From: Candidatus Sungiibacteriota bacterium
GTDB lineage: Bacteria; Patescibacteriota; Minisyncoccia; Sungbacterales; HO2-52-23
Assembly (NCBI GenBank): GCA_016432465.1
Contig: CP066690.1
Span: forward strand, 462,823-526,822
DNA: 64,000 bases
Direction of reading: 5' to 3'
A model generated the notes under the pieces. That model was not told where the DNA came from, made no database searches, and saw only the letters and a program-made list of their open reading frames with translations. The position numbers and the translations under genes are program-made. Every line of letters starts with the position of its first letter. Position 1 is the stretch's first letter. This document shows positions 4,300-61,607 of this stretch, one piece after another.

Positions 4300-6222
4300 A
4301 TGAAAGAATTGCTTAACGATCTGAACCCCCAACAGCAAGAGGCGGTCCTAACCACCGAAGGACCTGTTTTGATTCTGGCGGGACCCGGTTCCGGAAAAAC
4401 AAAAACGCTTACTCAACGCATTGCCCACCTTTTACAAATAGGGGTGCCTGCCGAAGAAATTCTGGCCGTAACATTTACCAACAAAGCAGCCGGGGAGATG
4501 CGTTCGCGCATACGTGCGCTGGTGGGAGAAAAAGCACTCAATGCCAACAGCGAGACAATGTTTGTCGGCACCTTTCATAGCTTGGCCGTAAAAATATTGA
4601 GAGTCCATGCTTCGCGGCTCGGTTTTTTGCCAAACTTTACTATTTTTGACGATGACGACTCTCTGGCGTTGATCAAAGAAACCATGAAAGAACTGGCCAT
4701 AAACCCCAAACAGTTTCCGGCGGGGATGATTTCTGGTGTTATATCCGGACTTAAAAACGAGCTGGTAACCCCGGGGGAGTACGAGGCGCGAGAGGGACTT
4801 TCGGATTTATTCCCCAAAACCGTACATAAAATTTATGCTTTTTATCAGAAAAGCCTGCATGATGCCAACGCCATGGACTTTGACGACCTTATTATGAATG
4901 TTTGCCTTCTTTTTGATAAAAACCCAGTTATTCTTGAAAGCTATCAAAATCGTTTTCGCTATATAAACGTGGACGAGTATCAGGACGTAAATCAGGCCCA
5001 GTACCGCCTGGTAACACAACTTGCCCTAAAGAAACGCAATATTGCAGTTGTTGGGGACGACGCGCAGGCAATTTACGCTTTCCGGGGCGCGGATTATCGC
5101 AACATTCTCAATTTTGAGAATGACTGGCCTGATGCCAAAGTGGTGGTACTTGATCAAAATTACCGCTCCACCCAAATAATTCTGGAGGCGGCAAGCGAAC
5201 TAATCGCCAAGAACAAACTTCAGAAGAAAAAGCAGCTCTGGACAACGGGGGCCGAGGGAGAACCCATTACAGTGGTTGCTGCTGAAAACGAACGTCAAGA
5301 AGCGGAGTTTATACTCTCTCTTATGAAAGACTTAGTCGGGCGCGGCTGCCCGCTAAAAGACATGGTGGTTTTGTATCGGACAAATGCGCAATCAAGAAAC
5401 TTGGAGGAGGTTTTTCTGGAACACAATTTCCCGTACAAAATTGTGGGCGGAATAAAATTCTACCACAGGAAAGAAGTAAAAGACGTTATTTCTTACTTAA
5501 GATTCCTGTTTAACTCCAAAGACCTGGTGAGTTTAAAACGCATAATAAATGTGCCGGCACGCGGTATAGGTAAAAGCACGATACTGGCCTATCTTGCCGA
5601 AAACAAACGCGTCTTAAGGCCGGCGGAAAAAGAAAAAATAGAACGCTTTCATGCTCTTAAGACCGAGTTGCGCGAAGGTATAAACAGTCTGACTGCGGCC
5701 GCCTTTCTTAAACACCTCCTCAAAACCATCAAATACCGAGAGTACCTTGACGACAGTTCTGCCAACTCCGAGGAGCGGTGGGAAAACGTACAGGAGTTAG
5801 TTAGTCTGGCCAAAAAATATGATGCCCTGGAATCTCCAAAAGGATTAGAGAAACTTCTGGAGGACGTTGCGCTTATGTCAGACAGCGACCAGATAGAAAC
5901 CGGCCAGAGTGTTGTTAACCTTATGACCCTGCATTCGGCTAAGGGGCTTGAATTTCCGGTTGTGTTCGTGGTGGGCATGGAGGAGGGAATTTTCCCGCAC
6001 TCCCGTTCCCTTTTTAATCCGGCTGACTTGGAAGAAGAACGCAGACTCTGCTATGTGGGTCTAACCCGGGCCAAAAAGCGGGTTTTTCTCTCTTTTGCAC
6101 TTCAAAGGACTCGCTTTGGAGCAACAGAGGTAAATCCGCCATCCCGCTTTCTTTCCGAAATACCCGAACACCTGCTTGAGGTTAACGAACTCATCCCTAC
6201 TATAGAGGCTAAGCCTCTATAG
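4300..6222 (+). CDS. uvrD: UvrD/PcrA/Rep-family ATP-dependent DNA helicase
   Basis: 640 aa; motif I AGPGSGKTKTLTQRIAHLL; motif II VDEYQDVNQAQY; conserved LHSAKGLEFPVVFVVG and YVGLTRAKKRVFLS motifs. Confidence 0.85.
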   Translation: MKELLNDLNPQQQEAVLTTEGPVLILAGPGSGKTKTLTQRIAHLLQIGVPAEEILAVTFTNKAAGEMRSRIRALVGEKALNANSETMFVGTFHSLAVKILRVHASRLGFLPNFTIFDDDDSLALIKETMKELAINPKQFPAGMISGVISGLKNELVTPGEYEAREGLSDLFPKTVHKIYAFYQKSLHDANAMDFDDLIMNVCLLFDKNPVILESYQNRFRYINVDEYQDVNQAQYRLVTQLALKKRNIAVVGDDAQAIYAFRGADYRNILNFENDWPDAKVVVLDQNYRSTQIILEAASELIAKNKLQKKKQLWTTGAEGEPITVVAAENERQEAEFILSLMKDLVGRGCPLKDMVVLYRTNAQSRNLEEVFLEHNFPYKIVGGIKFYHRKEVKDVISYLRFLFNSKDLVSLKRIINVPARGIGKSTILAYLAENKRVLRPAEKEKIERFHALKTELREGINSLTAAAFLKHLLKTIKYREYLDDSSANSEERWENVQELVSLAKKYDALESPKGLEKLLEDVALMSDSDQIETGQSVVNLMTLHSAKGLEFPVVFVVGMEEGIFPHSRSLFNPADLEEERRLCYVGLTRAKKRVFLSFALQRTRFGATEVNPPSRFLSEIPEHLLEVNELIPTIEAKPL

Positions 6223-10198: not shown

Positions 10199-12693
10199 TT
10201 TATAGCCGCAAAAAAACGTTAATAATAGTTCTCGGGGCCGCAGTGCTTATGCTTGGTTGGGTTTTGGTTTCAACCCACATTGCCGCTGCCGGTCCAACGC
10301 CAACAGGCCCGGTTGCTGTTTCTCCTCTTCAAAACGCCCTTGTCGGAACTTTGGGAAATCTCGGAAACGCTGCTTCCGCGGCCATTGCCATACTTGTGGG
10401 ACTGGCGCTTTTACAGTCGTTTTTGGCGGTTATCCTTGGTTATGTTGGCGTCCTTCTTAATAATCTTTTTTACTACAATACCATCCTGAACCCCTCCAAC
10501 ATTACAGTGGTTCAGGAGGGCTGGGCTATTGCCCGCGATGTGGCTAATGGCCTGTTTATCCTGATTTTGCTTTGGATTGCCTTTACCATTATTTTCAACG
10601 TTGAAAATCTTGGGGGTAAAAAACTAATAGTCCGGGTAATTTTAATTGCGCTTCTTATAAATTTTAGTCTGGCTATGGTATCGGCGGTTTTTGCTTTTTC
10701 CAACGTTCTGGCGCGCCCATTTCAAAACATCATCAAGGACCACGATGTGGCCGGCCTTATTATCGCACGCTCCAAACTCCACACCATTGTATCGCAGGTA
10801 AGAGACGAGGGTGTTATTCATGATTTTGAAAAAGAGGCGCTGAAGCGCGACCTTGAGGAACAAGCTAAAAGGTCCCAAGAATCCGGGGCCGGAGAACTGG
10901 GCGGAGAAATAAGCCGGAGGGCGGGTCAAAATTCGCTTCTGGCGTATCTCGGAGCGCCCAAAACCGCAGAAGCAGCTATAGACTTGAGAATGCTGGCGAT
11001 CTGCGGCCTAGGCGCCTTATCCGGCGTAGGAACGCCGGGCGGAGTGGTTTGTCTTGGTGCCACTATTGCCGGCGCCTTACTGGCTTCGCTGGGAGGCTGG
11101 TTCGTGGCCGGCTCCCTGATCCAAACCGGCTGGAACGCTGTTTTAAATCTTGCGGTCTCAAATATTTTCCTTATTTTAGCCACCTTTGCGATGGCAACAG
11201 CCGCTATTGTGCTTTTGGCTCGTATTATTGCCATGGTGTTTCTGGCCACACTTGCGCCCATTGCCCTGATGCTGCATATGATTCCCGGGGGTTTTGCCCA
11301 AAAACTCTGGAATGACTGGCTAAGCAGTGTTATAAAGTGGGCTTTTTATGCGCCGGCGTTTTACTTTCTTTTTTTCATGTCTTTGCGGGTGTTGGGGGAG
11401 CTGTCTAAAGGAACGCAATTTTTCGACGAGCCGGTCCCATTCCAAGGAAACGTATTTGCGGTCATGGCCCTGCTTGTCTTTCTTGGTTTTCTCTATGCAT
11501 CCATAATTGTGGCGCGCAAAATGGGTATAACGGTGGCCGACAGCTTTATTGGCTGGGGTAAAAAAATGGGGGCAGGCGCGCTTGGTTTGGCCGGCGGGGT
11601 TGTGGGCGGAGCAATCAGCCGCACGGGTTCTGCCCTGTTTAGAACCGTTGCTCCTGCCGGAGGAAGAATACAGCAGACGCTGCAGAAATCTGCCGGCGTA
11701 CCGTGGCTGCGGACGCTGGGCGGAGTTGCCGCCGGCGCTTATCTGGGGAGGATGACCGCGGAGAAAAAGGGCGTTGAGGACGCCTCCTCAAAATTGGCCT
11801 CGTACAGCAAAGAGGAGAAAGTCGCGGCCCTGCGCCGCGCCGTTACCGCCAAAGATACCGTGGCTGCGGCCCGGGCTCTTGGAAAAGATATCAACGACCC
11901 AACTATTTCTGAAGATCAAAAAAACCGCGCTCTGCGTCTGGCAACTCAATATGGAATGCAGATGGACCTTTTGAAGTTTATGCCGGAGAAAGCCACAAAG
12001 GACCTTGTCCCCGGGGCCAGTAGCGAGACGGACGCAATTGATAAGGTTGTATCCCGTATAAAACCAGATGAGTTGCCTAACATTTCTGAAAAATCACTGG
12101 AGAAAGAACCCGTCCAAATAGCTCTTCGCAAATATCTTACGCCAGAACACCTAAAACAGGTTGCCCGCAGTCCGCGCCCGGAACTGCTGACAAACATAAT
12201 TAGTGCCCTCAACGGCACAGGTTTAAGAAGAGAAACTTACAATTTCCTTGAAAGCGGTGGCGGCCGGGCAATCGGACTATACCTTCCCCCCAAGGCGCGC
12301 ATGGCCGCAGCCGGTGAAGAAGAAGAAAGAATAACAAAAGCCGGAGAAATTCTGGAACGCACCAAAAAGGGTCTTCAACAGACAAGGCGGGAAAAGCTAG
12401 GGATGGAGGGAAACATAGAGGCTCTGGAAAACACCGTAAGCGCGCTGCTTTCCGGGCTTGCGGCGTTACCCGAAGAAGAAAGGGGGGATGTGAAAAAAGA
12501 AATAGGACGTCTTAGGAATATTGAAATCGTTAAACTTAGAAATCATCTTGATGTTTTGAACAAGCGCATCAGGGCGCTGGAAACAGAACATAAAGAGGCG
12601 GAGGATGTGTTGGGCGGACCCAGGACAAGACCGACGGACGCTGCTGTTCCGCCGCCCGTCGGGATGCCGGAAGAAGAGGAAGAAGAAAGATAA
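10195..12693 (+). CDS. polytopic membrane protein, VirB6/TrbL-like candidate with a long cytoplasmic coiled-coil C-terminal extension
   Basis: 832 aa; at least six long hydrophobic helices in the N-terminal 450 aa; Gly-rich loops; charged coiled-coil tail ending EEEEEER; lies next to a VirB4-type ATPase. Confidence 0.5.
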   Translation: MIYSRKKTLIIVLGAAVLMLGWVLVSTHIAAAGPTPTGPVAVSPLQNALVGTLGNLGNAASAAIAILVGLALLQSFLAVILGYVGVLLNNLFYYNTILNPSNITVVQEGWAIARDVANGLFILILLWIAFTIIFNVENLGGKKLIVRVILIALLINFSLAMVSAVFAFSNVLARPFQNIIKDHDVAGLIIARSKLHTIVSQVRDEGVIHDFEKEALKRDLEEQAKRSQESGAGELGGEISRRAGQNSLLAYLGAPKTAEAAIDLRMLAICGLGALSGVGTPGGVVCLGATIAGALLASLGGWFVAGSLIQTGWNAVLNLAVSNIFLILATFAMATAAIVLLARIIAMVFLATLAPIALMLHMIPGGFAQKLWNDWLSSVIKWAFYAPAFYFLFFMSLRVLGELSKGTQFFDEPVPFQGNVFAVMALLVFLGFLYASIIVARKMGITVADSFIGWGKKMGAGALGLAGGVVGGAISRTGSALFRTVAPAGGRIQQTLQKSAGVPWLRTLGGVAAGAYLGRMTAEKKGVEDASSKLASYSKEEKVAALRRAVTAKDTVAAARALGKDINDPTISEDQKNRALRLATQYGMQMDLLKFMPEKATKDLVPGASSETDAIDKVVSRIKPDELPNISEKSLEKEPVQIALRKYLTPEHLKQVARSPRPELLTNIISALNGTGLRRETYNFLESGGGRAIGLYLPPKARMAAAGEEEERITKAGEILERTKKGLQQTRREKLGMEGNIEALENTVSALLSGLAALPEEERGDVKKEIGRLRNIEIVKLRNHLDVLNKRIRALETEHKEAEDVLGGPRTRPTDAAVPPPVGMPEEEEEER

Positions 12694-16414: not shown

Positions 16415-17404
16415 ATGACGCGTTTAACCCTACCAGTCGTGGCCCTGATTATTTGGGGCGTCTCTGCCTCGCTGTTTTCCTATGCACAGGTGTCAAATCT
16501 TTTCTCGGTTTCGTTGGTTACCAACCCGTCTTCACCGTCGCCCGGGGATACGATTAAGATTTTTGCGGCCACGCCAACACTGGATAAAAATTCAGCGGTA
16601 TTTTCTTGGTATATAGACGGCAGTCCCAAGCCCGACCTTTCCGGGCCCGGAAAAGATTCCATAAATATCACCGCCGGAAACGCTGGTTCGGCTATACGCA
16701 TACGGGTAGTTGTTGACAGCGCTGCGGACGGAAGCGCCGAGGTTTCCATGACCATACGTGTTTCGGATCTCGCCTTAACTTGGTTTGCGCAAACCCGTAT
16801 TCCGGCATGGTACAGAGGCAAAGCGCTTCCCGTCCCCGGATCCATTGTTAATATCGTGGCCATTCCGCAGATTACTACGCGTCTTGGTCCCATACGCCCC
16901 GAGGACCTAATTTATACTTGGGGTTTAAATGACGACATAAAAGTTCTTTCTGGGGTTGGGGAACAGGTGTTTCGTATTAAAACTTCTGACCTTCCCAACA
17001 CTTCGCACCACATAAAACTTGTGGTTGAAGATATTAATAAAGAGGTGCATAGAGAGGGAGAACTTTTTATAGTCCCCACCAACCCGCGGGTTGTTATTTA
17101 TAAAACCTCGCCCTTGGGCGGCGTGGAGACGCGTTCTGCCTCGACTTTTTTGGAAGCCCCCCAACAGGGCCTGATTGATTTCCAAGCAGAACCATTTTTC
17201 TTTCCGGTAACATCGCGGGGAAGCCTTAAATACCGCTGGGAAGTCGCCGGAACAGAGGTAGCGGGCGATCCGGGAAATCCTTTTATTCTGACCCTTGATA
17301 CCGCCCAACAACTGCTTAAGCAACTCGCCATATCGGTTTGGGTGGATGACGACGATGCCCTTCTACCTTCTGCCTCGGGGTCTGTAACCCTAAACTTTCC
17401 ATGA
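16415..17404 (+). CDS. secreted hypothetical protein (signal peptide, beta-rich)
   Basis: 329 aa; signal peptide LTLPVVALIIWGVSASLFSYAQV; Ig-like beta-strand-rich composition. Confidence 0.5.
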   Translation: MTRLTLPVVALIIWGVSASLFSYAQVSNLFSVSLVTNPSSPSPGDTIKIFAATPTLDKNSAVFSWYIDGSPKPDLSGPGKDSINITAGNAGSAIRIRVVVDSAADGSAEVSMTIRVSDLALTWFAQTRIPAWYRGKALPVPGSIVNIVAIPQITTRLGPIRPEDLIYTWGLNDDIKVLSGVGEQVFRIKTSDLPNTSHHIKLVVEDINKEVHREGELFIVPTNPRVVIYKTSPLGGVETRSASTFLEAPQQGLIDFQAEPFFFPVTSRGSLKYRWEVAGTEVAGDPGNPFILTLDTAQQLLKQLAISVWVDDDDALLPSASGSVTLNFP

Positions 17405-19444: not shown

Positions 19445-19900
19445 TTACGGGTAGGGTTTTATAATAACCCTTCTTGCTGGTTCCTGTCCTATGGACTCTG
19501 TTGTTATGTCCGGGTACTCGGCGAGGAGCAGGTGAACAATACGGCGCTCAAAAGACGACATGGGGTGAAGCGGCACTTCCCGATGATATAAACGCACCTC
19601 TCGGGCCGCATTTTTTACATCCTGTTTCAGGTCTTCTAGTTTTTTAATGCGATAATCGTTGATGTCTAGGGTAAATTTTTGTTCCTCGCCGTATTTTTTT
19701 CTTATGATTTTCTTCAGCAGATGGTCAATGGCCACCAAGTTCACGCCGCGCTCTCCAATCAGCATGCTGGAATCCTGCCGTACCCTGATGCTAAAACGGC
19801 TCGTCGTTCCCTGATGAGCCTCAATATCTTCTATGTCTTCCTCAAATCCCATATGAGTAAACATGCTTCTTATCTCTTCTTTTATACGTTCTTGTTCCAT
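19445..19900 (-). CDS. jag: Jag/KhpB-like RNA-binding protein (KH plus R3H domains)
   Basis: R3H motif in the C-terminus (SSFERRIVHLLLAEYPDITTESIGQEPARRVIIKP), followed by the minus-strand yidC-yidD-rnpA-rpmH genes. The start was placed at the internal Met (MEQERIKEE) to avoid the overlap with yidC. Confidence 0.7.
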   Translation of the reverse strand: MEQERIKEEIRSMFTHMGFEEDIEDIEAHQGTTSRFSIRVRQDSSMLIGERGVNLVAIDHLLKKIIRKKYGEEQKFTLDINDYRIKKLEDLKQDVKNAAREVRLYHREVPLHPMSSFERRIVHLLLAEYPDITTESIGQEPARRVIIKPYP

Positions 19901-20601
19901 ACTCTGCGCATTATGGTTTCCTGGATAATACCAAAAGTGTTTAAAACCGTCCAGTACAGGGCCAGCGCAGAGGGAAGGCTTGAGGACCAAATAATTATAA
20001 GTGCCGGAAAAAGATAAAGCGTTTGCCACCTAAGAATTTTGGCAAAGTCTCCTTGCGCGGGCGGTTGGGGCGCGGCTTGGGCCGTTGACAGCTTGGTCTG
20101 CAAAAACTGACTTAGGGCGGCTATGACCCCAAAAAACAAATTTCCCTTGGACAAATCCACCAGACCAAAACTAACCGGGTTGAGTGCGCCCGGATTTTTT
20201 ACAAAAGAATAAAGATAAGAAAGCTGTGCCGGGTCAAAACCCTTTTGAAACACCTGAAATAACGCTATAAGAAGGGGCAGCTGAATCAAAATAATAAGAC
20301 AGCCGCCGAACGGGTTTACTTTTTTCTCGGCATAAAGTTCCATGAGGGCCTTTCCCTGCGCTCCTTTGTTGTTTTTATGCTGGTTTTGGACCTTCTCAAT
20401 CTCCGGCTGCAGCACAGCAAGATCACGCTGGGACTTCTGCATTTTTAGAAATAGCGGTGACAGTATCAAACGAATCACAAGGGTTAAAACGATAATAGCC
20501 AGCCCAAGATCCTGCCAGGGGAGGGTGGTGTAAAACCAAACAAGGCCGTTGAAAAGCGGCCTCCAGAGAACCTCGGTATAAAGATAGGTGATGGAGTTCA
20601 T
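19882..20601 (-). CDS. yidC: membrane protein insertase YidC/Oxa1 (short form)
   Basis: 239 aa; TM helices and the conserved LPLLIALFQVF and KVNPFGGCLIILIQ regions; conserved position next to yidD and rnpA. Confidence 0.8.
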   Translation of the reverse strand: MNSITYLYTEVLWRPLFNGLVWFYTTLPWQDLGLAIIVLTLVIRLILSPLFLKMQKSQRDLAVLQPEIEKVQNQHKNNKGAQGKALMELYAEKKVNPFGGCLIILIQLPLLIALFQVFQKGFDPAQLSYLYSFVKNPGALNPVSFGLVDLSKGNLFFGVIAALSQFLQTKLSTAQAAPQPPAQGDFAKILRWQTLYLFPALIIIWSSSLPSALALYWTVLNTFGIIQETIMRRVWNKNV

Positions 20602-20696
20602 CCCGTTAGAGATTTAAATCATGATAATACTACATTATAGAGTTGCAAAGATGTTACAAAAACCATAAGTTACTGCTGCCCTAAATCTCTAACGGG
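20602..20696. mobile_element. 95-bp MITE-like element with CCCGTTAGAGA / TCTCTAACGGG terminal inverted repeats (copy 1)
   Basis: Perfect 11-bp TIRs; a second copy lies at 40268-40365 with the same TIRs and a shared AACCATAAGT sub-terminal box. The left end abuts the yidC start codon; the right end encodes the last 8 codons of yidD. Confidence 0.5.
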
Positions 20697-20972
20697 ATCG
20701 TATCCGCCCGCGTTCCCGGGATGACACCTCAAAATCCTTCTGACGGACACCACAACCCCCTTTATTAGTCCATATTGACGGATTGCTTGCCGCGCGTAGT
20801 CTGAGCAGGAGGGATAAAAACGACAACGCGCGCTGGGTGGCAAAATCCTGACCGCGCCATGGTCCGGAGAAATTGTCTTCTGATAAAAAGTGATTACTGT
20901 TAGAACAAATCTAGCGAGCGGCTCGTTCCAGTGTTTTTTTGAAATCTTCATAAAAGTTGGTGCGCGAAGCAC
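20670..20972 (-). CDS. yidD: membrane protein insertion efficiency factor YidD
   Basis: CRFYPSCSDYARQA...HPGNAGGYDPV signature. The start is probably the internal Met (MKISKKH). The last codons are supplied by the repeat element. Confidence 0.7.
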   Translation of the reverse strand: MLRAPTFMKISKKHWNEPLARFVLTVITFYQKTISPDHGAVRILPPSARCRFYPSCSDYARQAIRQYGLIKGVVVSVRRILRCHPGNAGGYDPVRDLGQQ

Positions 20973-21383: not shown

Positions 21384-21487
21384 TTTGAGTGTTAGAATTT
21401 TTATAAACAAGCTATGCACACCATTTACACATTTCTAGTATTTGCCCTTGTTGTATAATGGGTGGTGTTATCTTAATTATATAATTT

Positions 21488-31599: not shown

Positions 31600-31701
31600 G
31601 ATGATTAATACTGGTATAATTATTAATGACGATTGACAAAAAAGTAAACTGTTTTTATAGTGCGACTGGGGGGGCGTGGCCCCTTTTTGGTTGTTATTTT
31701 T

Positions 31702-31831
31702 GGCCGTGGGCAATTAAGGTTTACATCCTTAAATGGGGATTTTTACACCAGGGCCAGCCGGTGTTAGCTCGCTGGTGCCTGGGAGAAATCCTAGCCTCCG
31801 TGTTCCCAAACCGGAGTAATTGCCCACGGCC
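31702..31831. repeat. 130-nt element bounded by perfect 15-bp inverted repeats (GGCCGTGGGCAATTA ... TAATTGCCCACGGCC); candidate structured small RNA or miniature repeat
   Basis: Terminal inverted repeat seen directly; an internal hairpin CCAGGGCCAGC...GCTGGTGCCTGG. Sits between the pilB stop and the ruvB promoter. Confidence 0.35.
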
Positions 31832-31850
31832 GAATATAGCAACCCCCAAT

Positions 31851-39466: not shown

Positions 39467-40261
39467 ATGCCCGAACTTCCTGAAGTAGAAACAATTGTGA
39501 GATTTTTGAGACCCAAAATCCGCGGAAAGCGGATTTTGAGTATGGAAATAAGGGGTAGGCGGGTGGCGCGCGGGCACAAGAACCCGCAGGAACTAAATAG
39601 GGCCGTTGCCGGCAGGAAGATAAGTGAAGTTAACCGGACTGGGAAAAATATAATTCTTGAGTTGTCGGGAGGCGCACGACTTGCGATTCACTTGATGATG
39701 ACCGGCCGGCTTTTTTGGAATCCGAAAGAAAAACAAATACATGACCGCTTGGTGCTAAAGTTGTCCGGAGGAAATGACCTTGTTTTTAACGACATACGTC
39801 AATTTGGGTGGTGCAGGGTTCTTAAACCGAGTGGGAAACTAGCCGGACCCGATGTGTTAAGTCTGGGGTTTAATGAGTTTAAAAGTTTAGTGAGTCCACG
39901 CCCAGCGCTGATTAAAAACCTTCTTCTCAATCAGAAAGTTATTTCCGGAATTGGCAATATCTACTCTGATGAAATTTTGTGGTACGCTTGTCTAAGGCCA
40001 ACGCGAAGGGCAAATACTTTCTCTGGACGCGAACTTAAAAAATTTTATCAAGCAATGCGCCATGTTCTTTTGCTGGCCATCAAAAAAGAAGGCACCAGCA
40101 GTCGGGACTATCGGAAACCGGACGGAACAGAAGGGGGATACTATAAAATAAGGAAAGCGTATCAGCGGGCAGGGAAGCAATGTTTGCGTGACGGCGCAAC
40201 TATCAAGCGCATTAAAATAGGAAGCCGCTCGGCGCATTTTTGCCCCAAACACCAGAAATAA
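39467..40261 (+). CDS. fpg: formamidopyrimidine-DNA glycosylase (Fpg/MutM/Nei family)
   Basis: N-terminal MPELPEVE catalytic Pro-Glu; H2TH region; C-terminal zinc finger C..C...C. Confidence 0.8.
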   Translation: MPELPEVETIVRFLRPKIRGKRILSMEIRGRRVARGHKNPQELNRAVAGRKISEVNRTGKNIILELSGGARLAIHLMMTGRLFWNPKEKQIHDRLVLKLSGGNDLVFNDIRQFGWCRVLKPSGKLAGPDVLSLGFNEFKSLVSPRPALIKNLLLNQKVISGIGNIYSDEILWYACLRPTRRANTFSGRELKKFYQAMRHVLLLAIKKEGTSSRDYRKPDGTEGGYYKIRKAYQRAGKQCLRDGATIKRIKIGSRSAHFCPKHQK

Positions 40262-40267
40262 TGTAAT

Positions 40268-40365
40268 CCCGTTAGAGACGCAGCCTTGTTCTTGGCAAGA
40301 ATTAAGTATGGGCTACCAACACAAAACTTATTAATTATTAAGATTAACCATAAGTCTCTAACGGG
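40268..40365. mobile_element. 98-bp MITE-like element with CCCGTTAGAGA / TCTCTAACGGG terminal inverted repeats (copy 2)
   Basis: Same 11-bp TIRs and AACCATAAGT sub-terminal box as the copy at 20602-20696. The right TIR ends exactly at the holA ATG. Confidence 0.5.
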
Positions 40366-41277
40366 ATGAATTATCTTCTTTACGGCGAAGATACTTATCG
40401 GAGCCGGAAAAAACTACGCGAAATAATTGAAGAATACCGCGCTAAAACCGGCTCGTCGTTAAGTTTCTACCGTCTTGATGCTGAAGAAGACGATATGTCA
40501 CGGCTAAAGGTTTTTACCCAAACGTCTTCTCTCTTCAGTCCCAAAAAGCTGATTGTGATTGAGGGCGCTCTGTCCGGGAGTGAGCAATTTGGCCACGTGC
40601 TGTCTGCGGCCAAAGAAATAAAAGAGTCTCGGGACACCGTGCTTCTTTTGTGGGAACGCGAACTGGATGATACCACACGAAAACGGCTCAAAGAAATAGA
40701 ACCGTATCTAAGCAAAACCCAGGAGTTTAAACCATTGTCGCGTGAGGCGGTAAGCCGCTGGATACAGGAGGAGGCCAAAAAGCTGGGGGTACGTCTTTTT
40801 CCTGTGCATCTTGCCAAACTATCAATATTGGGCAGTGATCTTTGGGCAATATCCAGCGAGTTGGATAAAATCGCTGTTGCTAACCCGCAATCCGCGACCA
40901 CTAACCCGCAAACTATTGACGAGCGCAGCATTTTCCAGCTCGGCGACACCTTTTTCGTATCGCGCCGCGAGGCCCTGTTTAACCTTTTGGGGCTTCTGGC
41001 GCAAGGGGAGAATGAGCTTGGAATTTTTTCATACCTTGTTAATCACGCGCGAACCCTCCTTACCGTAAAAACCTATACATCCGAGAATAGGGTTGTCCCT
41101 GCATCGTTGGGTATTCATCCTTTTGTAGTAAAAAAAGCGGCGGCCGTCAGCCGTGGTCTGCCGGTAGAACATCTTCGTTCAACCATGGGTCGTTTTCTTG
41201 AGGAGGATTTTAAAATTAAAACGGGCCTTACCAAGCCCGCCGAGTCCCTCTTCCGACTCTTGACCCAAAGGTCTTAA
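40366..41277 (+). CDS. holA: DNA polymerase III delta subunit HolA
   Basis: 303 aa; N-terminus MNYLLYGEDTYRSRKKL typical of HolA. Confidence 0.7.
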   Translation: MNYLLYGEDTYRSRKKLREIIEEYRAKTGSSLSFYRLDAEEDDMSRLKVFTQTSSLFSPKKLIVIEGALSGSEQFGHVLSAAKEIKESRDTVLLLWERELDDTTRKRLKEIEPYLSKTQEFKPLSREAVSRWIQEEAKKLGVRLFPVHLAKLSILGSDLWAISSELDKIAVANPQSATTNPQTIDERSIFQLGDTFFVSRREALFNLLGLLAQGENELGIFSYLVNHARTLLTVKTYTSENRVVPASLGIHPFVVKKAAAVSRGLPVEHLRSTMGRFLEEDFKIKTGLTKPAESLFRLLTQRS

Positions 41278-56206: not shown

Positions 56207-56249
56207 TAAAGTATACAGATACTGTGGGGAGGGGTCTAGGGGAATACGT

Positions 56250-56330
56250 GTAATTTAATTCGGGGCTCTCCGCTCCCGTCCCTCCTCGGCGAGCTCGCCC
56301 TTCGGGCGAAGGGGCCCCGAATTAAATTAC
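56250..56330 (+). repeat. 81-nt hairpin with perfect 17-bp arms (GTAATTTAATTCGGGGC ... GCCCCGAATTAAATTAC) enclosing a GC-rich core, in the tRNA leader
   Basis: Perfect inverted repeat seen directly; the core carries further GC hairpins (GCCCTTCGGGC). Confidence 0.5.
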
Positions 56331-56468
56331 AGGGATCTTTGAATTTAAGAGGGGACTATTGTGACCGTCCAAACAGGGGGGCAAGTGGGACACTCACTAA
56401 ATCACAAATTGGGGTGTTTTCTCACCGTGTCCTCCGATTTGGGCGGTCAAAAGGCCGCAGAAACGGTT

Positions 56469-60741: not shown

Positions 60742-60791
60742 CTTTTACGTAATCACCCCCTCACGATCGTGAGGGGGTGATTACGTAAAAG
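60742..60791. terminator. 50-nt perfect palindrome CTTTTACGTAATCACCCCCTCACGA|TCGTGAGGGGGTGATTACGTAAAAG; bidirectional terminator
   Basis: Perfect 25-bp arms, seen directly between convergent genes. Confidence 0.6.
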
Positions 60792-61288: not shown

Positions 61289-61607
61289 AGAGATAGTTTT
61301 AACTTTGAAGTTTTTGAGCATGACCCCGCACTTATTTTGCGAGTTAGCCCATGGCGGCACGCTTCGCACGCAGAGGGGTTGGCTATTCGCCACCGCGTGC
61401 CGCACAAATTCTCGTCTTTCAGCATTGTTTGGGAGCCCTGCCAGTATCTTGGCAAAATAAGTGCGGGGTTAAGTTTTTGTAGCGAAATTTATTTCGCTAC
61501 TGCTCATAAATTTCGACAAAAACATAAAACCCACACCCCACACCCATTTAAAATATAAAATCTGCGTCTCGGGAGCCGCAGAAACCAATTTTTGTTCCAA
61601 AGACACG

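Follow-up and report, generated by a model that had tools for sequence, protein, structure and literature searches.

Introduction

The Rickettsia palindromic elements (RPEs) are repeats of about 100–150 bp that are found in frame in housekeeping genes, and also in RNA genes and intergenic DNA (review PMC10969869). Miniature transposable elements with inverted repeats (MITEs) of the Correia type are co-transcribed and form long hairpins in the mRNA, and some of them carry promoters (PMC10969869). In the insertion sequences (IS) of the IS200/IS605 group the targets are short motifs such as TTAC or TTGAT (PMC5027513, PMC5934647, PMC8612924), and for IS608 a target tetranucleotide at the left end, a circular single-strand junction and a guide-based retargeting have been described (PMC5027513, PMC5934647). 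Here, a hairpin element with the termini CCCGTTAGAGA and TCTCTAACGGG is analyzed, starting from two copies which precede the essential genes yidC and holA in a Candidatus Sungiibacteriota genome (contig CP066690.1, positions 462,823 to 526,822; this whole stretch of 64,000 nt is referred to as the window). Both copies are probably old, fixed members of a widespread family of non-autonomous mobile hairpins. Such a family would explain the hairpin of about 100 nt found before each of the two essential genes, as well as the odd C-terminus of the YidD protein encoded next to yidC.

Results

Two Copies of the Element in the Window

A first-pass annotation, made from the letters alone, had pointed out two elements of 95–98 bp with perfect 11-bp terminal inverted repeats, a sub-terminal box and ends at the start codons of yidC and holA, and all of these details were exact in the sequence. 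Copy 1 has a length of 95 bp and copy 2 of 98 bp, and each of them starts with an exact CCCGTTAGAGA on the plus strand and finishes with its reverse complement TCTCTAACGGG (Table 1). When up to one mismatch was allowed, five sites were counted for the 11-mer against 0.98 ± 0.92 in shuffles, a number reached in none of the 100 shuffles, and the chance expectation for exact 11-mers in 128 kb is only about 0.03. The inverted repeat common to both copies comprises 13 bp (ATCCCGTTAGAGA / TCTCTAACGGGAT); the arms extend to 17 bp in copy 1, where they are 100% complementary and 65 nt apart, and to 14 bp in copy 2. Apart from the AACCATAAGT box, the two interiors show weak similarity to each other. 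The RNA folds of both regions consisted of the long-range stem, with free energies of −38.0 and −35.6 kcal/mol (z values of −5.1 and −5.35 against shuffles). A third copy was not found within the window. Both copies were unchanged and had the same orientation in ten independent assemblies of the window species, at the level of the consensus, and are fixed within this species.

Size and Host Range of the Family

Sequence collections were scanned for CCCGTTAGAGA-N60-90-TCTCTAACGGG, i.e., for exact termini separated by a gap of 60–90 nt, and the family statistics given below hold for that slice. This search for further copies, which had been proposed in the first-pass annotation, matched at least 120 contigs in the genome collection and at least 120 in the metagenome collection, with about two chance matches expected in the former. 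The loci, numbered with the prefix L, amounted to 240 and contained some 300 copies of 29–300 bp in about 1.6 Mb of sequence. According to the record titles given by the depositors, the hosts among the matches listed are many lineages of Patescibacteria, including Saccharibacteria, together with Omnitrophota, Nitrospirota, Thermodesulfovibrionia, Planctomycetota, Elusimicrobia, WOR-3, Ratteibacteria, metagenome-assembled genomes (MAGs) of delta- and gammaproteobacteria and one MAG of Actinomycetota. Some of the carrier contigs are 0.3–1.7 Mb long, several MAGs gave many loci, and up to five copies were present in a single locus.

The pattern of the termini was not found in 2.9 million viral contigs, and representative elements had no match in plasmid or phage collections. 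Rfam 15 gave no match at the gathering score except for tRNAs, and only sub-threshold hairpin noise when the E-value was raised to 10; the peptides encoded by the elements matched no Pfam family. Full-text literature searches for the 11-mer and for elements of this type in these phyla returned no relevant paper, and the family is apparently undescribed.

A Polar Unit Flanked by a Pentanucleotide

When the orientations were pooled, the outward flank of the elements read R-T-N-N-A-Y, with background composition beyond it. The direct repeat of its 4-nt core was perfect in 156 of the 249 elements, confirming the target-site duplications that the first-pass annotation had proposed to look for, and the bases touching the termini (−1 and +1) were complementary in 230 of them. 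The interiors were clustered and normalized for orientation before the registers of the repeat were compared. In the largest cluster (n = 46) the left flank was TTTAC and the right flank G+TTTAC in every case, and never the complement; the left base −1 equaled the right base +6 in 42 of the 46 elements, compared with 17 for the left base −6 and the right base +1. The second cluster gave 17/18 vs. 5/18 for the same two registers. Since the registers differ once the clusters have been oriented, the unit is polar and can be written as 5'-[TTNAY]-CCCGTTAGAGA...(interior usually 60–90 nt)...TCTCTAACGGG-R-[TTNAY]-3', where R pairs with Y. This extra base, present at just one of the two sides, is complementary to the final base of the repeat, so that the terminal stem reaches at least 12 bp.

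Among the perfect 5-nt repeats, 36 were canonical on one strand and 39 on the other, and 38 fitted both registers. Of the 75 scorable repeats, 61 corresponded to TTNAY once all of them had been put in the canonical orientation (32 TTTAC, 16 TTCAT, 6 TTGAC and others). Each interior subfamily keeps its own pentanucleotide, in a fixed orientation, although the termini are identical. Strictly required was only CCCGTTAGA; the next positions of the stem vary in a compensated manner, e.g., AGAAA/TTTCT or AGAAG/CTTCT.

The interior of cluster 0 contains two hairpins with abundant compensatory change. Sixty-three cells of the alignment had changed on both sides of a pair, against 22.5 ± 4.4 in shuffles, none of which (0/500) reached the observed value, and only 9–44 such cells were obtained in a control in which the pairing partners were slid by 1 to 3 columns. 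Many G-U pairs of this cluster are valid on the TTTAC strand only, which therefore points to selection on one folded strand, DNA or RNA. The long-range stem has a competitor in a third hairpin, in which the right terminus is paired with an internal repeat copy. From these predicted folds, which are mutually exclusive, the element could work as a conformational switch in the largest subfamily. In alignment A3 the competing partners occupy columns 96–122 and 7–17/113–123 (e.g., L173 2825–2935), and the internal repeat copy stands 3 nt from the right terminus. The two window copies belong to subfamilies other than the largest cluster; their interiors are AT-rich, with little structure and no hairpins near both ends.

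Mobility of the Element

A mini-hairpin of 29 nt, T-CCCGTTAGAGA-CTGTG-TCTCTAACGGG-A, was found together with a duplicated CTCG(T) nested in a larger element (L182/L075), and nine related elements with an uninterrupted GCTCGTAT represent empty sites for it. Head-to-tail tandems with a single common repeat were present in L022, L028 and L160; such tandems are expected because each insertion would regenerate its own target at the 3' end. Additionally, the yidD-yidC junction was compared in relatives (60–67% YidC identity) in order to look for empty sites, and the element was present in L256, whereas L255, L257 and L259 lacked it. The nested insertion with its empty sites, the tandems and the presence or absence at the yidD-yidC junction show that the element is mobile. 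The absences in relatives and the spread of the family also excluded the scenario that had been named as fatal to mobility, i.e., only two copies, conserved as a leader in related genomes. Of the MITE-like nature proposed at the beginning, a short, multi-copy, non-coding mobile element with inverted repeats and flanking direct repeats was confirmed; the element is, however, not private to this genome, its architecture does not fit a symmetric MITE of the DDE type, and no autonomous parent was found.

In the 240 loci, a sample that is not genome-wide, no adjacent termini lay 400 bp or more apart, and a search for long elements with matching termini and repeats returned only pairs of separate small copies. 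An IS1380-family transposase in L085 was considered as a partner and rejected, being part of a multi-copy IS with ends of its own, CCTTGTAGTTGCATAAA. Copies of this IS were located in a 1.7-Mb Nitrospirota contig (L085 6522–8000 and L241 2465–3943), with the ends CCTTGTAGTTGCATAAA / TTTATGCAACGTTAAGG. About 250 bp separate one of them from a mini-hairpin of the CCCGTTAGAGA family, a proximity that appears coincidental.

The yidD-yidC and fpg-holA Junctions

Copy 1 is located between yidD and yidC in the rpmH-rnpA-yidD-yidC-jag cluster, beside dnaA, and the YidC encoded there is 100% identical to a protein on a 923-kb contig. The last nine codons of yidD had been attributed to the element. This was correct for RDLGQQ* but not for DPV, which is a native motif of yidD; the YidD of relatives ends as GGYDPVK*, GGYDPVT... 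or GGYDPVP..., and L257, without the element, natively encodes DPV as GAT CCC GTT. The terminal repeat shares its first 7–8 nt with native yidD codons, and there is no matching flanking repeat on the yidD side of copy 1. In L256 the element is flush with the ATGAAT of yidC and begins 13 nt past an intact yidD stop; its interior resembles that of window copy 2, not copy 1. Because the DPV codons are native in the element-free L257, a later microhomology deletion is the best explanation for the fused YidD tail. In this history, which we infer to be the simplest one, the element would have been inserted before the ATGAA of yidC, as seen in L256, and a deletion between two TCCCGTT stretches would have removed the yidD tail and the upstream repeat, leaving YidD with a foreign tail of six residues.

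The yidD-yidC junctions of relatives (L255 ~1095–1195; L257 ~1075–1125) hold other, unrelated hairpin repeats (e.g., ACGAATAAACGAATCGCGAATTCG... and GGAAGTAGGAAGTATGA.../TCATGATTCCTACTTCC), and this junction is a hot spot for palindromic insertions. The yidD gene itself was not called in the gene predictions of most contigs (window 20670–20972; L245–L252, L256, L259) despite an open reading frame (ORF) of 100 aa with the YidD motif, a likely annotation gap, which a start codon other than ATG (in the window, GTG) and the altered 3' end in the window species would account for.

Outward-facing promoters had also been suggested for the interiors. The copy 1 region gave three sigma-70-like matches against 0.8 ± 1.1 in shuffles, the one listed in Table 1 agreeing at 9 of 12 positions, and none was found in copy 2. 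The case for a promoter donated by the element, judged by these motifs, is weak.

Copy 2 separates fpg from holA. At the end of fpg, ATG(T)AAT can be read directly as the upstream copy of the flanking repeat ATGAAT, broken by one extra T. A disrupted upstream copy would mean that fpg and holA overlapped at the ancestral junction; the ATG at the fpg stop would be the relic of a former TAATG overlap, split by copy 2, and the empty site before the insertion would read ...TAATGAATTATC...

A Shine-Dalgarno-like motif was found in just 8 of the 54 ORFs of the window, which suggests, from the upstream sequences, a widespread leaderless or Shine-Dalgarno-independent initiation in this Sungiibacteriota genome. 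For initiation, an unstructured start region or coupling is probably needed here. The long-range stem would bury the start codons of yidC and holA. Of the two upstream stops, that of yidD falls within the left arm of copy 1 and that of fpg 4 nt ahead of the arm of copy 2; a ribosome terminating at either of them would melt the stem and free the downstream AUG, and translational coupling would be preserved, which would account for the tolerance of both insertions ahead of essential genes. Many ORFs of the window have, in addition, a TATAAT-like box 5–8 nt before the start codon (e.g., the starts at 16415, 21488, 7438, 58135 and 39156).

TABLE 1. Coordinates of the two copies, their neighboring genes and other repeats of the window, and of the palindromes flanking Y1 transposase genes in other loci.
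Feature	Position	Strand	Remarks
Copy 1 with closing A-T/T-A pair	20600–20698		arms 20600–20616 / 20682–20698; AT-rich interior
Copy 1, terminal repeat CCCGTTAGAGA	20602–20612	+	flush with the yidC start (CAT 20599–20601 on the plus strand)
Copy 1, second terminal repeat	20686–20696	-	TCTCTAACGGG on the plus strand; yidD reads the minus strand as (D)PVRD
Copy 1, AACCATAAGT box	20663–20672
Copy 1, sigma-70-like match	20621–20648	-	TTGCAA-16 nt-TATCAT; aimed at yidC; weak candidate promoter, 9/12
yidC	19882–20601	-	239 aa, PF02096; ATG 20601–20599 flush with the copy 1 terminus
yidD ORF	20670–20972	-	runs 27 nt into copy 1; ends ...GGYDPVRDLGQQ*
Last nine yidD codons inside copy 1	20670–20696	-	DPVRDLGQQ; stop 20670–20672
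Copy 2 with closing pair	40266–40367		arms 40266–40279 / 40354–40367
Copy 2, terminal repeat CCCGTTAGAGA	40268–40278	+
Copy 2, second terminal repeat	40355–40365	-	TCTCTAACGGG on the plus strand; holA ATG directly after
Copy 2, AACCATAAGT box	40345–40354
fpg	39467–40261
fpg stop and putative relic ATG	40259–40267	+	TAA 40259–40261 overlapping ATG 40261–40263, TAA at once after
holA	40366–41277	+	303 aa, DNA polymerase III delta; ATG 40366–40368; ATGAAT forms the downstream flanking-repeat copy
rpmH/dnaA divergent intergenic region	21420–21487		probable replication origin
MITE-like inverted-repeat pair	31689–31716 / 31817–31844		28-nt arms, 100 nt apart; gene border
Inverted-repeat pair	61323–61340 / 61452–61469		18-nt perfect arms, 111 nt apart
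Inverted-repeat pair	56244–56266 / 56314–56336		23-nt arms, 47 nt apart
Palindrome	60742–60791		perfect, 50 nt
Y1-flanking palindrome, L260	1445–1492
Y1-flanking palindromes, L261	745–788; 1489–1528
Y1-flanking palindromes, L262	1392–1435; 2187–2231
Y1-flanking palindromes, L263	1424–1473; 2173–2222
Y1-flanking palindrome, L212	~12075–12125

With the probable origin inside the window, the two copies are on opposite replichores, and each one is co-oriented with its gene. The other inverted repeats of the window and the 50-nt palindrome listed in Table 1 are families distinct from the CCCGTTAGAGA element.

Position of the Elements Relative to Genes

The abutment on a start codon seen in both window copies recurs throughout the family: 60 of the 265 elements end exactly at a start codon opening an ORF of at least 60 aa (41 of 53 ends with ATG and 19 of 49 with GTG), and in 19 of the 21 cases that could be scored the start codon is next to the end lacking the extra base. 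The abutment arises because TTCAT, read on the opposite strand, is ATGAA, with which genes of these AT-rich genomes most commonly start, and insertions elsewhere in genes would be purged by purifying selection unless the element is in frame. The earlier idea that the element targets, or has been selected at, start codons holds in this restricted form, as many more copies are found at TTTAC, at stop codons or in frame within ORFs.

The stops of the ORFs reading into the element pile up at −5 and −4, in the repeat, and at +5, in the TAG of the terminal repeat (48 of 176). Two of the three frames of the termini are open and the third contains a stop; they are translated as TPLE...SLTG or PVR(E/D)...FSNG. 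In-frame read-through within long ORFs was detected in 23 of 238 elements. In a UvrD-like helicase (L074) the element corresponds to an insert of 39 residues, which falls precisely between positions 248 and 250 of the D. radiodurans enzyme of known structure, and a DinG-like helicase (L172) also carries an in-frame element. In several type IV pilin-like genes it is located at the Gly-Phe-Thr cleavage motif, where the terminus and the repeat regenerate ...SLTG/FT. The possibility that most TTTAC sites were pilin genes was considered and rejected, since they account for only about 9 of 81. In L145 (2865–6470), a run of pilin-like genes with GFTLIEL/GFTLFEL N-termini carries four or five copies in 4 kb, each at Gly-Phe-Thr codons, and the element appears to land preferentially in pilin gene clusters.

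Of 247 elements, 105 had a length divisible by three, a property shown by 30 of the 39 members of cluster 0, whose conserved peptide is FTPLEKA...SSLTGFT. Open frames were present in 88 of these 105 elements vs. 48 of the other 142, and, as a statistical signal in the sequences, this enrichment indicates translation of the element and not its removal. Deletion of the element restored an ORF in 30 cases, against 15–19 in frame-shifted controls, a noisy count with elements situated at gene borders. There are also copies that disrupt genes, as happens with a Y1 gene in L085.

Moreover, one unit (L101 5896–5999; compare L215 240–313) contains a complete tRNA-Ala(CGC) exactly between the terminal repeats (ARAGORN, 5909–5982, minus strand) and lies within another, disrupted tRNA-Ala-like gene, at the region of its anticodon loop. 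By its sequence, it looks like an element with a replacement tRNA as its cargo.

Discussion

The polar repeat, together with the fixed orientation of each subfamily, bears on how the element is moved. A single-strand, homology-guided route is our tentative preference, by analogy with the "peel and paste" of IS200/IS605. The element would move in trans and in a strand-specific way; in the excised strand or circle, the abutted ends would form a stem of 12 bp closed by a TTNA loop, and integration would occur directly 3' of a target whose pentanucleotide is the same as that at the element's own 3' end. The weight left over by this route and by the DDE and recombinase routes discussed below goes to options outside those weighed.

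A more ambitious proposal, which we put forward as possible and rather doubtful, is that these elements constitute a new class of trans-mobilized DNA hairpins. Their target pentanucleotide would be self-carried and hence programmable, and they would move as a folded single strand or mini-circle, possibly by means of a housekeeping enzyme. They would have spread horizontally through many uncultivated phyla, with insertions that regenerate start codons, stop codons and the Gly-Phe-Thr motif, and with tRNA as a possible cargo. For a polar, self-specified targeting without a linked transposase, the mechanism of mobilization is not yet understood, and the invariant termini of 11–12 nt offer a handle on the enzyme.

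Several observations weigh against the explanation preferred here. The perfect 5-nt repeat is missing in 96 of 209 elements, and neither window copy has an intact flanking repeat, so that we infer their polarity from the abutting ATGAA alone; the AACCATAAGT box would, moreover, orient the two interiors oppositely relative to their genes, contrary to the rule observed within clusters. The statistics of the family describe the exact-terminus slice defined above. In the loci examined no enzyme was linked to the element, and the Y1/IS200-like genes present in 7 of the 240 loci, as well as four fetched homologues, are flanked by unrelated palindromes of their own. A guide sequence covarying with the pentanucleotide was not demonstrated, the automated calling of hairpin feet being ambiguous. 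The G/A at column 20 of alignment A3 tracks the C/T of the repeat in one lineage, and it may equally represent the closing pair of hairpin H1. The IS200/IS605 elements have subterminal hairpins, no terminal inverted repeats and no repeat at the right end, where the cleavage motif differs from the target.

The most serious competitor is a classical MITE, i.e., an internally deleted derivative of a DDE-type IS mobilized in trans through its terminal inverted repeats, with a staggered cut that duplicates 4 or 5 bp. The terminal inverted repeats with flanking direct repeats agree with it, as do the empty sites with a single repeat copy and the R-T-N-N-A-Y consensus, which looks palindromic while the orientations are pooled. 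Elements of the IS1380/piggyBac type have ends starting with CC and duplications of 4–5 bp. However, the polar, subfamily-specific repeat, the covarying extra base and the transposition of a 29-nt hairpin make a poor fit to a symmetric DDE transposase: the orientation is fixed with respect to the asymmetric TTNAY, the repeat differs between subfamilies with identical termini, and a hairpin with a 5-nt loop is hard to square with double-strand synapsis. Neither does any autonomous copy occur in the 1.6 Mb around the roughly 300 copies, the nearby IS1380 ends CCTTGTAGTTGCATAAA being unrelated. We consider this origin unlikely.

Less probable still is an element handled by a tyrosine or serine recombinase, a small circle with an 11-6-11 core (TCTCTAACGGG-RTTNAY-CCCGTTAGAGA) that would integrate wherever a crossover of 5–6 bp matches. 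Its arm-spacer-arm geometry is like that of dif/lox-type sites, and a crossover carried by the element would explain the subfamily- and orientation-specific repeats as well as the imperfect repeats of about 40% of the copies. Against it, the target flanks are at background composition beyond the 6-mer, without binding arms, and a Xer-like gene is present in only 2 of 240 loci, with no enrichment. We know of no similarity between the termini and known dif arms.

The Y1 genes (PF01797) mentioned above bear on a further alternative, that of repetitive extragenic palindromes (REPs) or their hairpin-forming REPIN pairs mobilized by a domesticated REP-associated tyrosine transposase (RAYT) of the Y1 family. 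The hairpin has the size of a REPIN, mini-hairpins exist and an autonomous copy is lacking; three of the Y1 genes lie less than 450 bp from an element, and the gene in L212 has copies on both sides. Nevertheless, the Y1 genes of L212 and L260–L263 are each bracketed by a perfect palindrome of their own, of 40–48 nt, and CCCGTTAGAG was found near none of the four fetched homologues. REPs are lineage-specific and extragenic, unlike the CCCGTTAGAGA element, which crosses phyla and is often intragenic, and in L085 the element disrupts a Y1 gene. For the Y1 clade tested this explanation is largely refuted, and in general it is highly improbable. The patescibacterial Y1 genes with palindromes of their own upstream and downstream represent, in themselves, a REP/RAYT-like arrangement in bacteria of the candidate phyla radiation.

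Removal after transcription, by an intron-like excision or by ribosomal bypass between the two repeat copies, would make insertions in genes harmless. In known bypass elements the take-off and landing sites are direct repeats flanking a stable hairpin, an arrangement that is found here too; some copies break ORFs that otherwise look intact, as in the Y1 gene of L085, and the interiors have strand-specific structure on the sense strand of host ORFs. By contrast, the intragenic copies are enriched for multiple-of-three lengths and open frames, and no ribozyme or intron family was matched, which leaves very little room for this explanation. Practically negligible is the last one, a vertically inherited cis-regulatory leader, riboregulator or invertible promoter upstream of yidC and holA: the strong long-range stem ending at the start codon, the promoter-like match in copy 1 and the invariance of both copies in ten assemblies speak for it, whereas the same junction lacks the element in three relatives, the interiors are not conserved between the copies and match nothing in Rfam even at an E-value of 10, hundreds of unrelated contexts, ORF interiors among them, have the same termini, the inverted form was seen in none of the ten assemblies, and copy 2 has no promoter match.

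If the family is what it seems to be, it would be among the most widely distributed small mobile elements in bacteria, invisible to automated annotation. It would also imply systematic gene-calling errors in Patescibacteria, Omnitrophota and similar groups, with proteins lengthened or truncated and genes and tRNAs split in MAGs.

Compared with the systems described to date, the CCCGTTAGAGA family fails defining features of the RPEs, of the Correia-type MITEs and of IS200/IS605 alike. Two further candidates were discarded. In an integron attC site (RYYYAAC ... GTTRRRY, in cassette arrays beside intI) the order is the reverse of GTTAGAG...CTCTAAC, and the copies of the family are dispersed at housekeeping genes; for an inverton, all ten assemblies would not be expected in the same orientation, as they were at consensus level.

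The REP/REPIN-RAYT systems are similarly hairpin-forming and non-autonomous, of REPIN-like size and without an internal gene. REPs, however, are confined to lineages and extragenic space and bracket their cognate RAYT, whereas the CCCGTTAGAGA element is often genic and the Y1 genes have different palindromes. With Correia/NEMIS and other MITEs (ERIC, RUP, BOX) the family shares short inverted repeats near or inside genes. The Correia elements have a TA duplication and 26-bp repeats and belong to one genus, in contrast to the TTNAY repeat, the termini of 11–12 nt, the polarity and the cross-phylum distribution found here. By the general description of a MITE, the size, the non-coding nature, the multiple copies, the terminal inverted repeats and the target duplication all agree, and the autonomous IS is absent.

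The likeness to IS200/IS605 (IS608, ISDra2) lies in the insertion in one orientation directly 3' of a short T-rich motif and in the strand-specific hairpins, and the data are consistent with a circular junction. In both cases the choice of target is encoded in the element rather than in the protein alone. Elements of the CCCGTTAGAGA family carry the pentanucleotide at each end and have mutually complementary termini, with hairpins near both ends in cluster 0; a TnpA with CCCGTTAGAGA ends was not found.

The RPEs, which were compared by features and not by sequence, are likewise palindromic repeats without a transposase of their own that lie in frame in unrelated genes and encode a conserved peptide. 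The in-frame insertion with a conserved peptide is found in the CCCGTTAGAGA family as a whole, the window copies being intergenic save for the nine codons of yidD. The RPEs are confined to Rickettsia and close relatives, whereas the CCCGTTAGAGA family extends over many phyla with identical termini, and the polar TTNAY repeat, the precise abutment on start and stop codons and the mini-hairpins are features of the CCCGTTAGAGA family.

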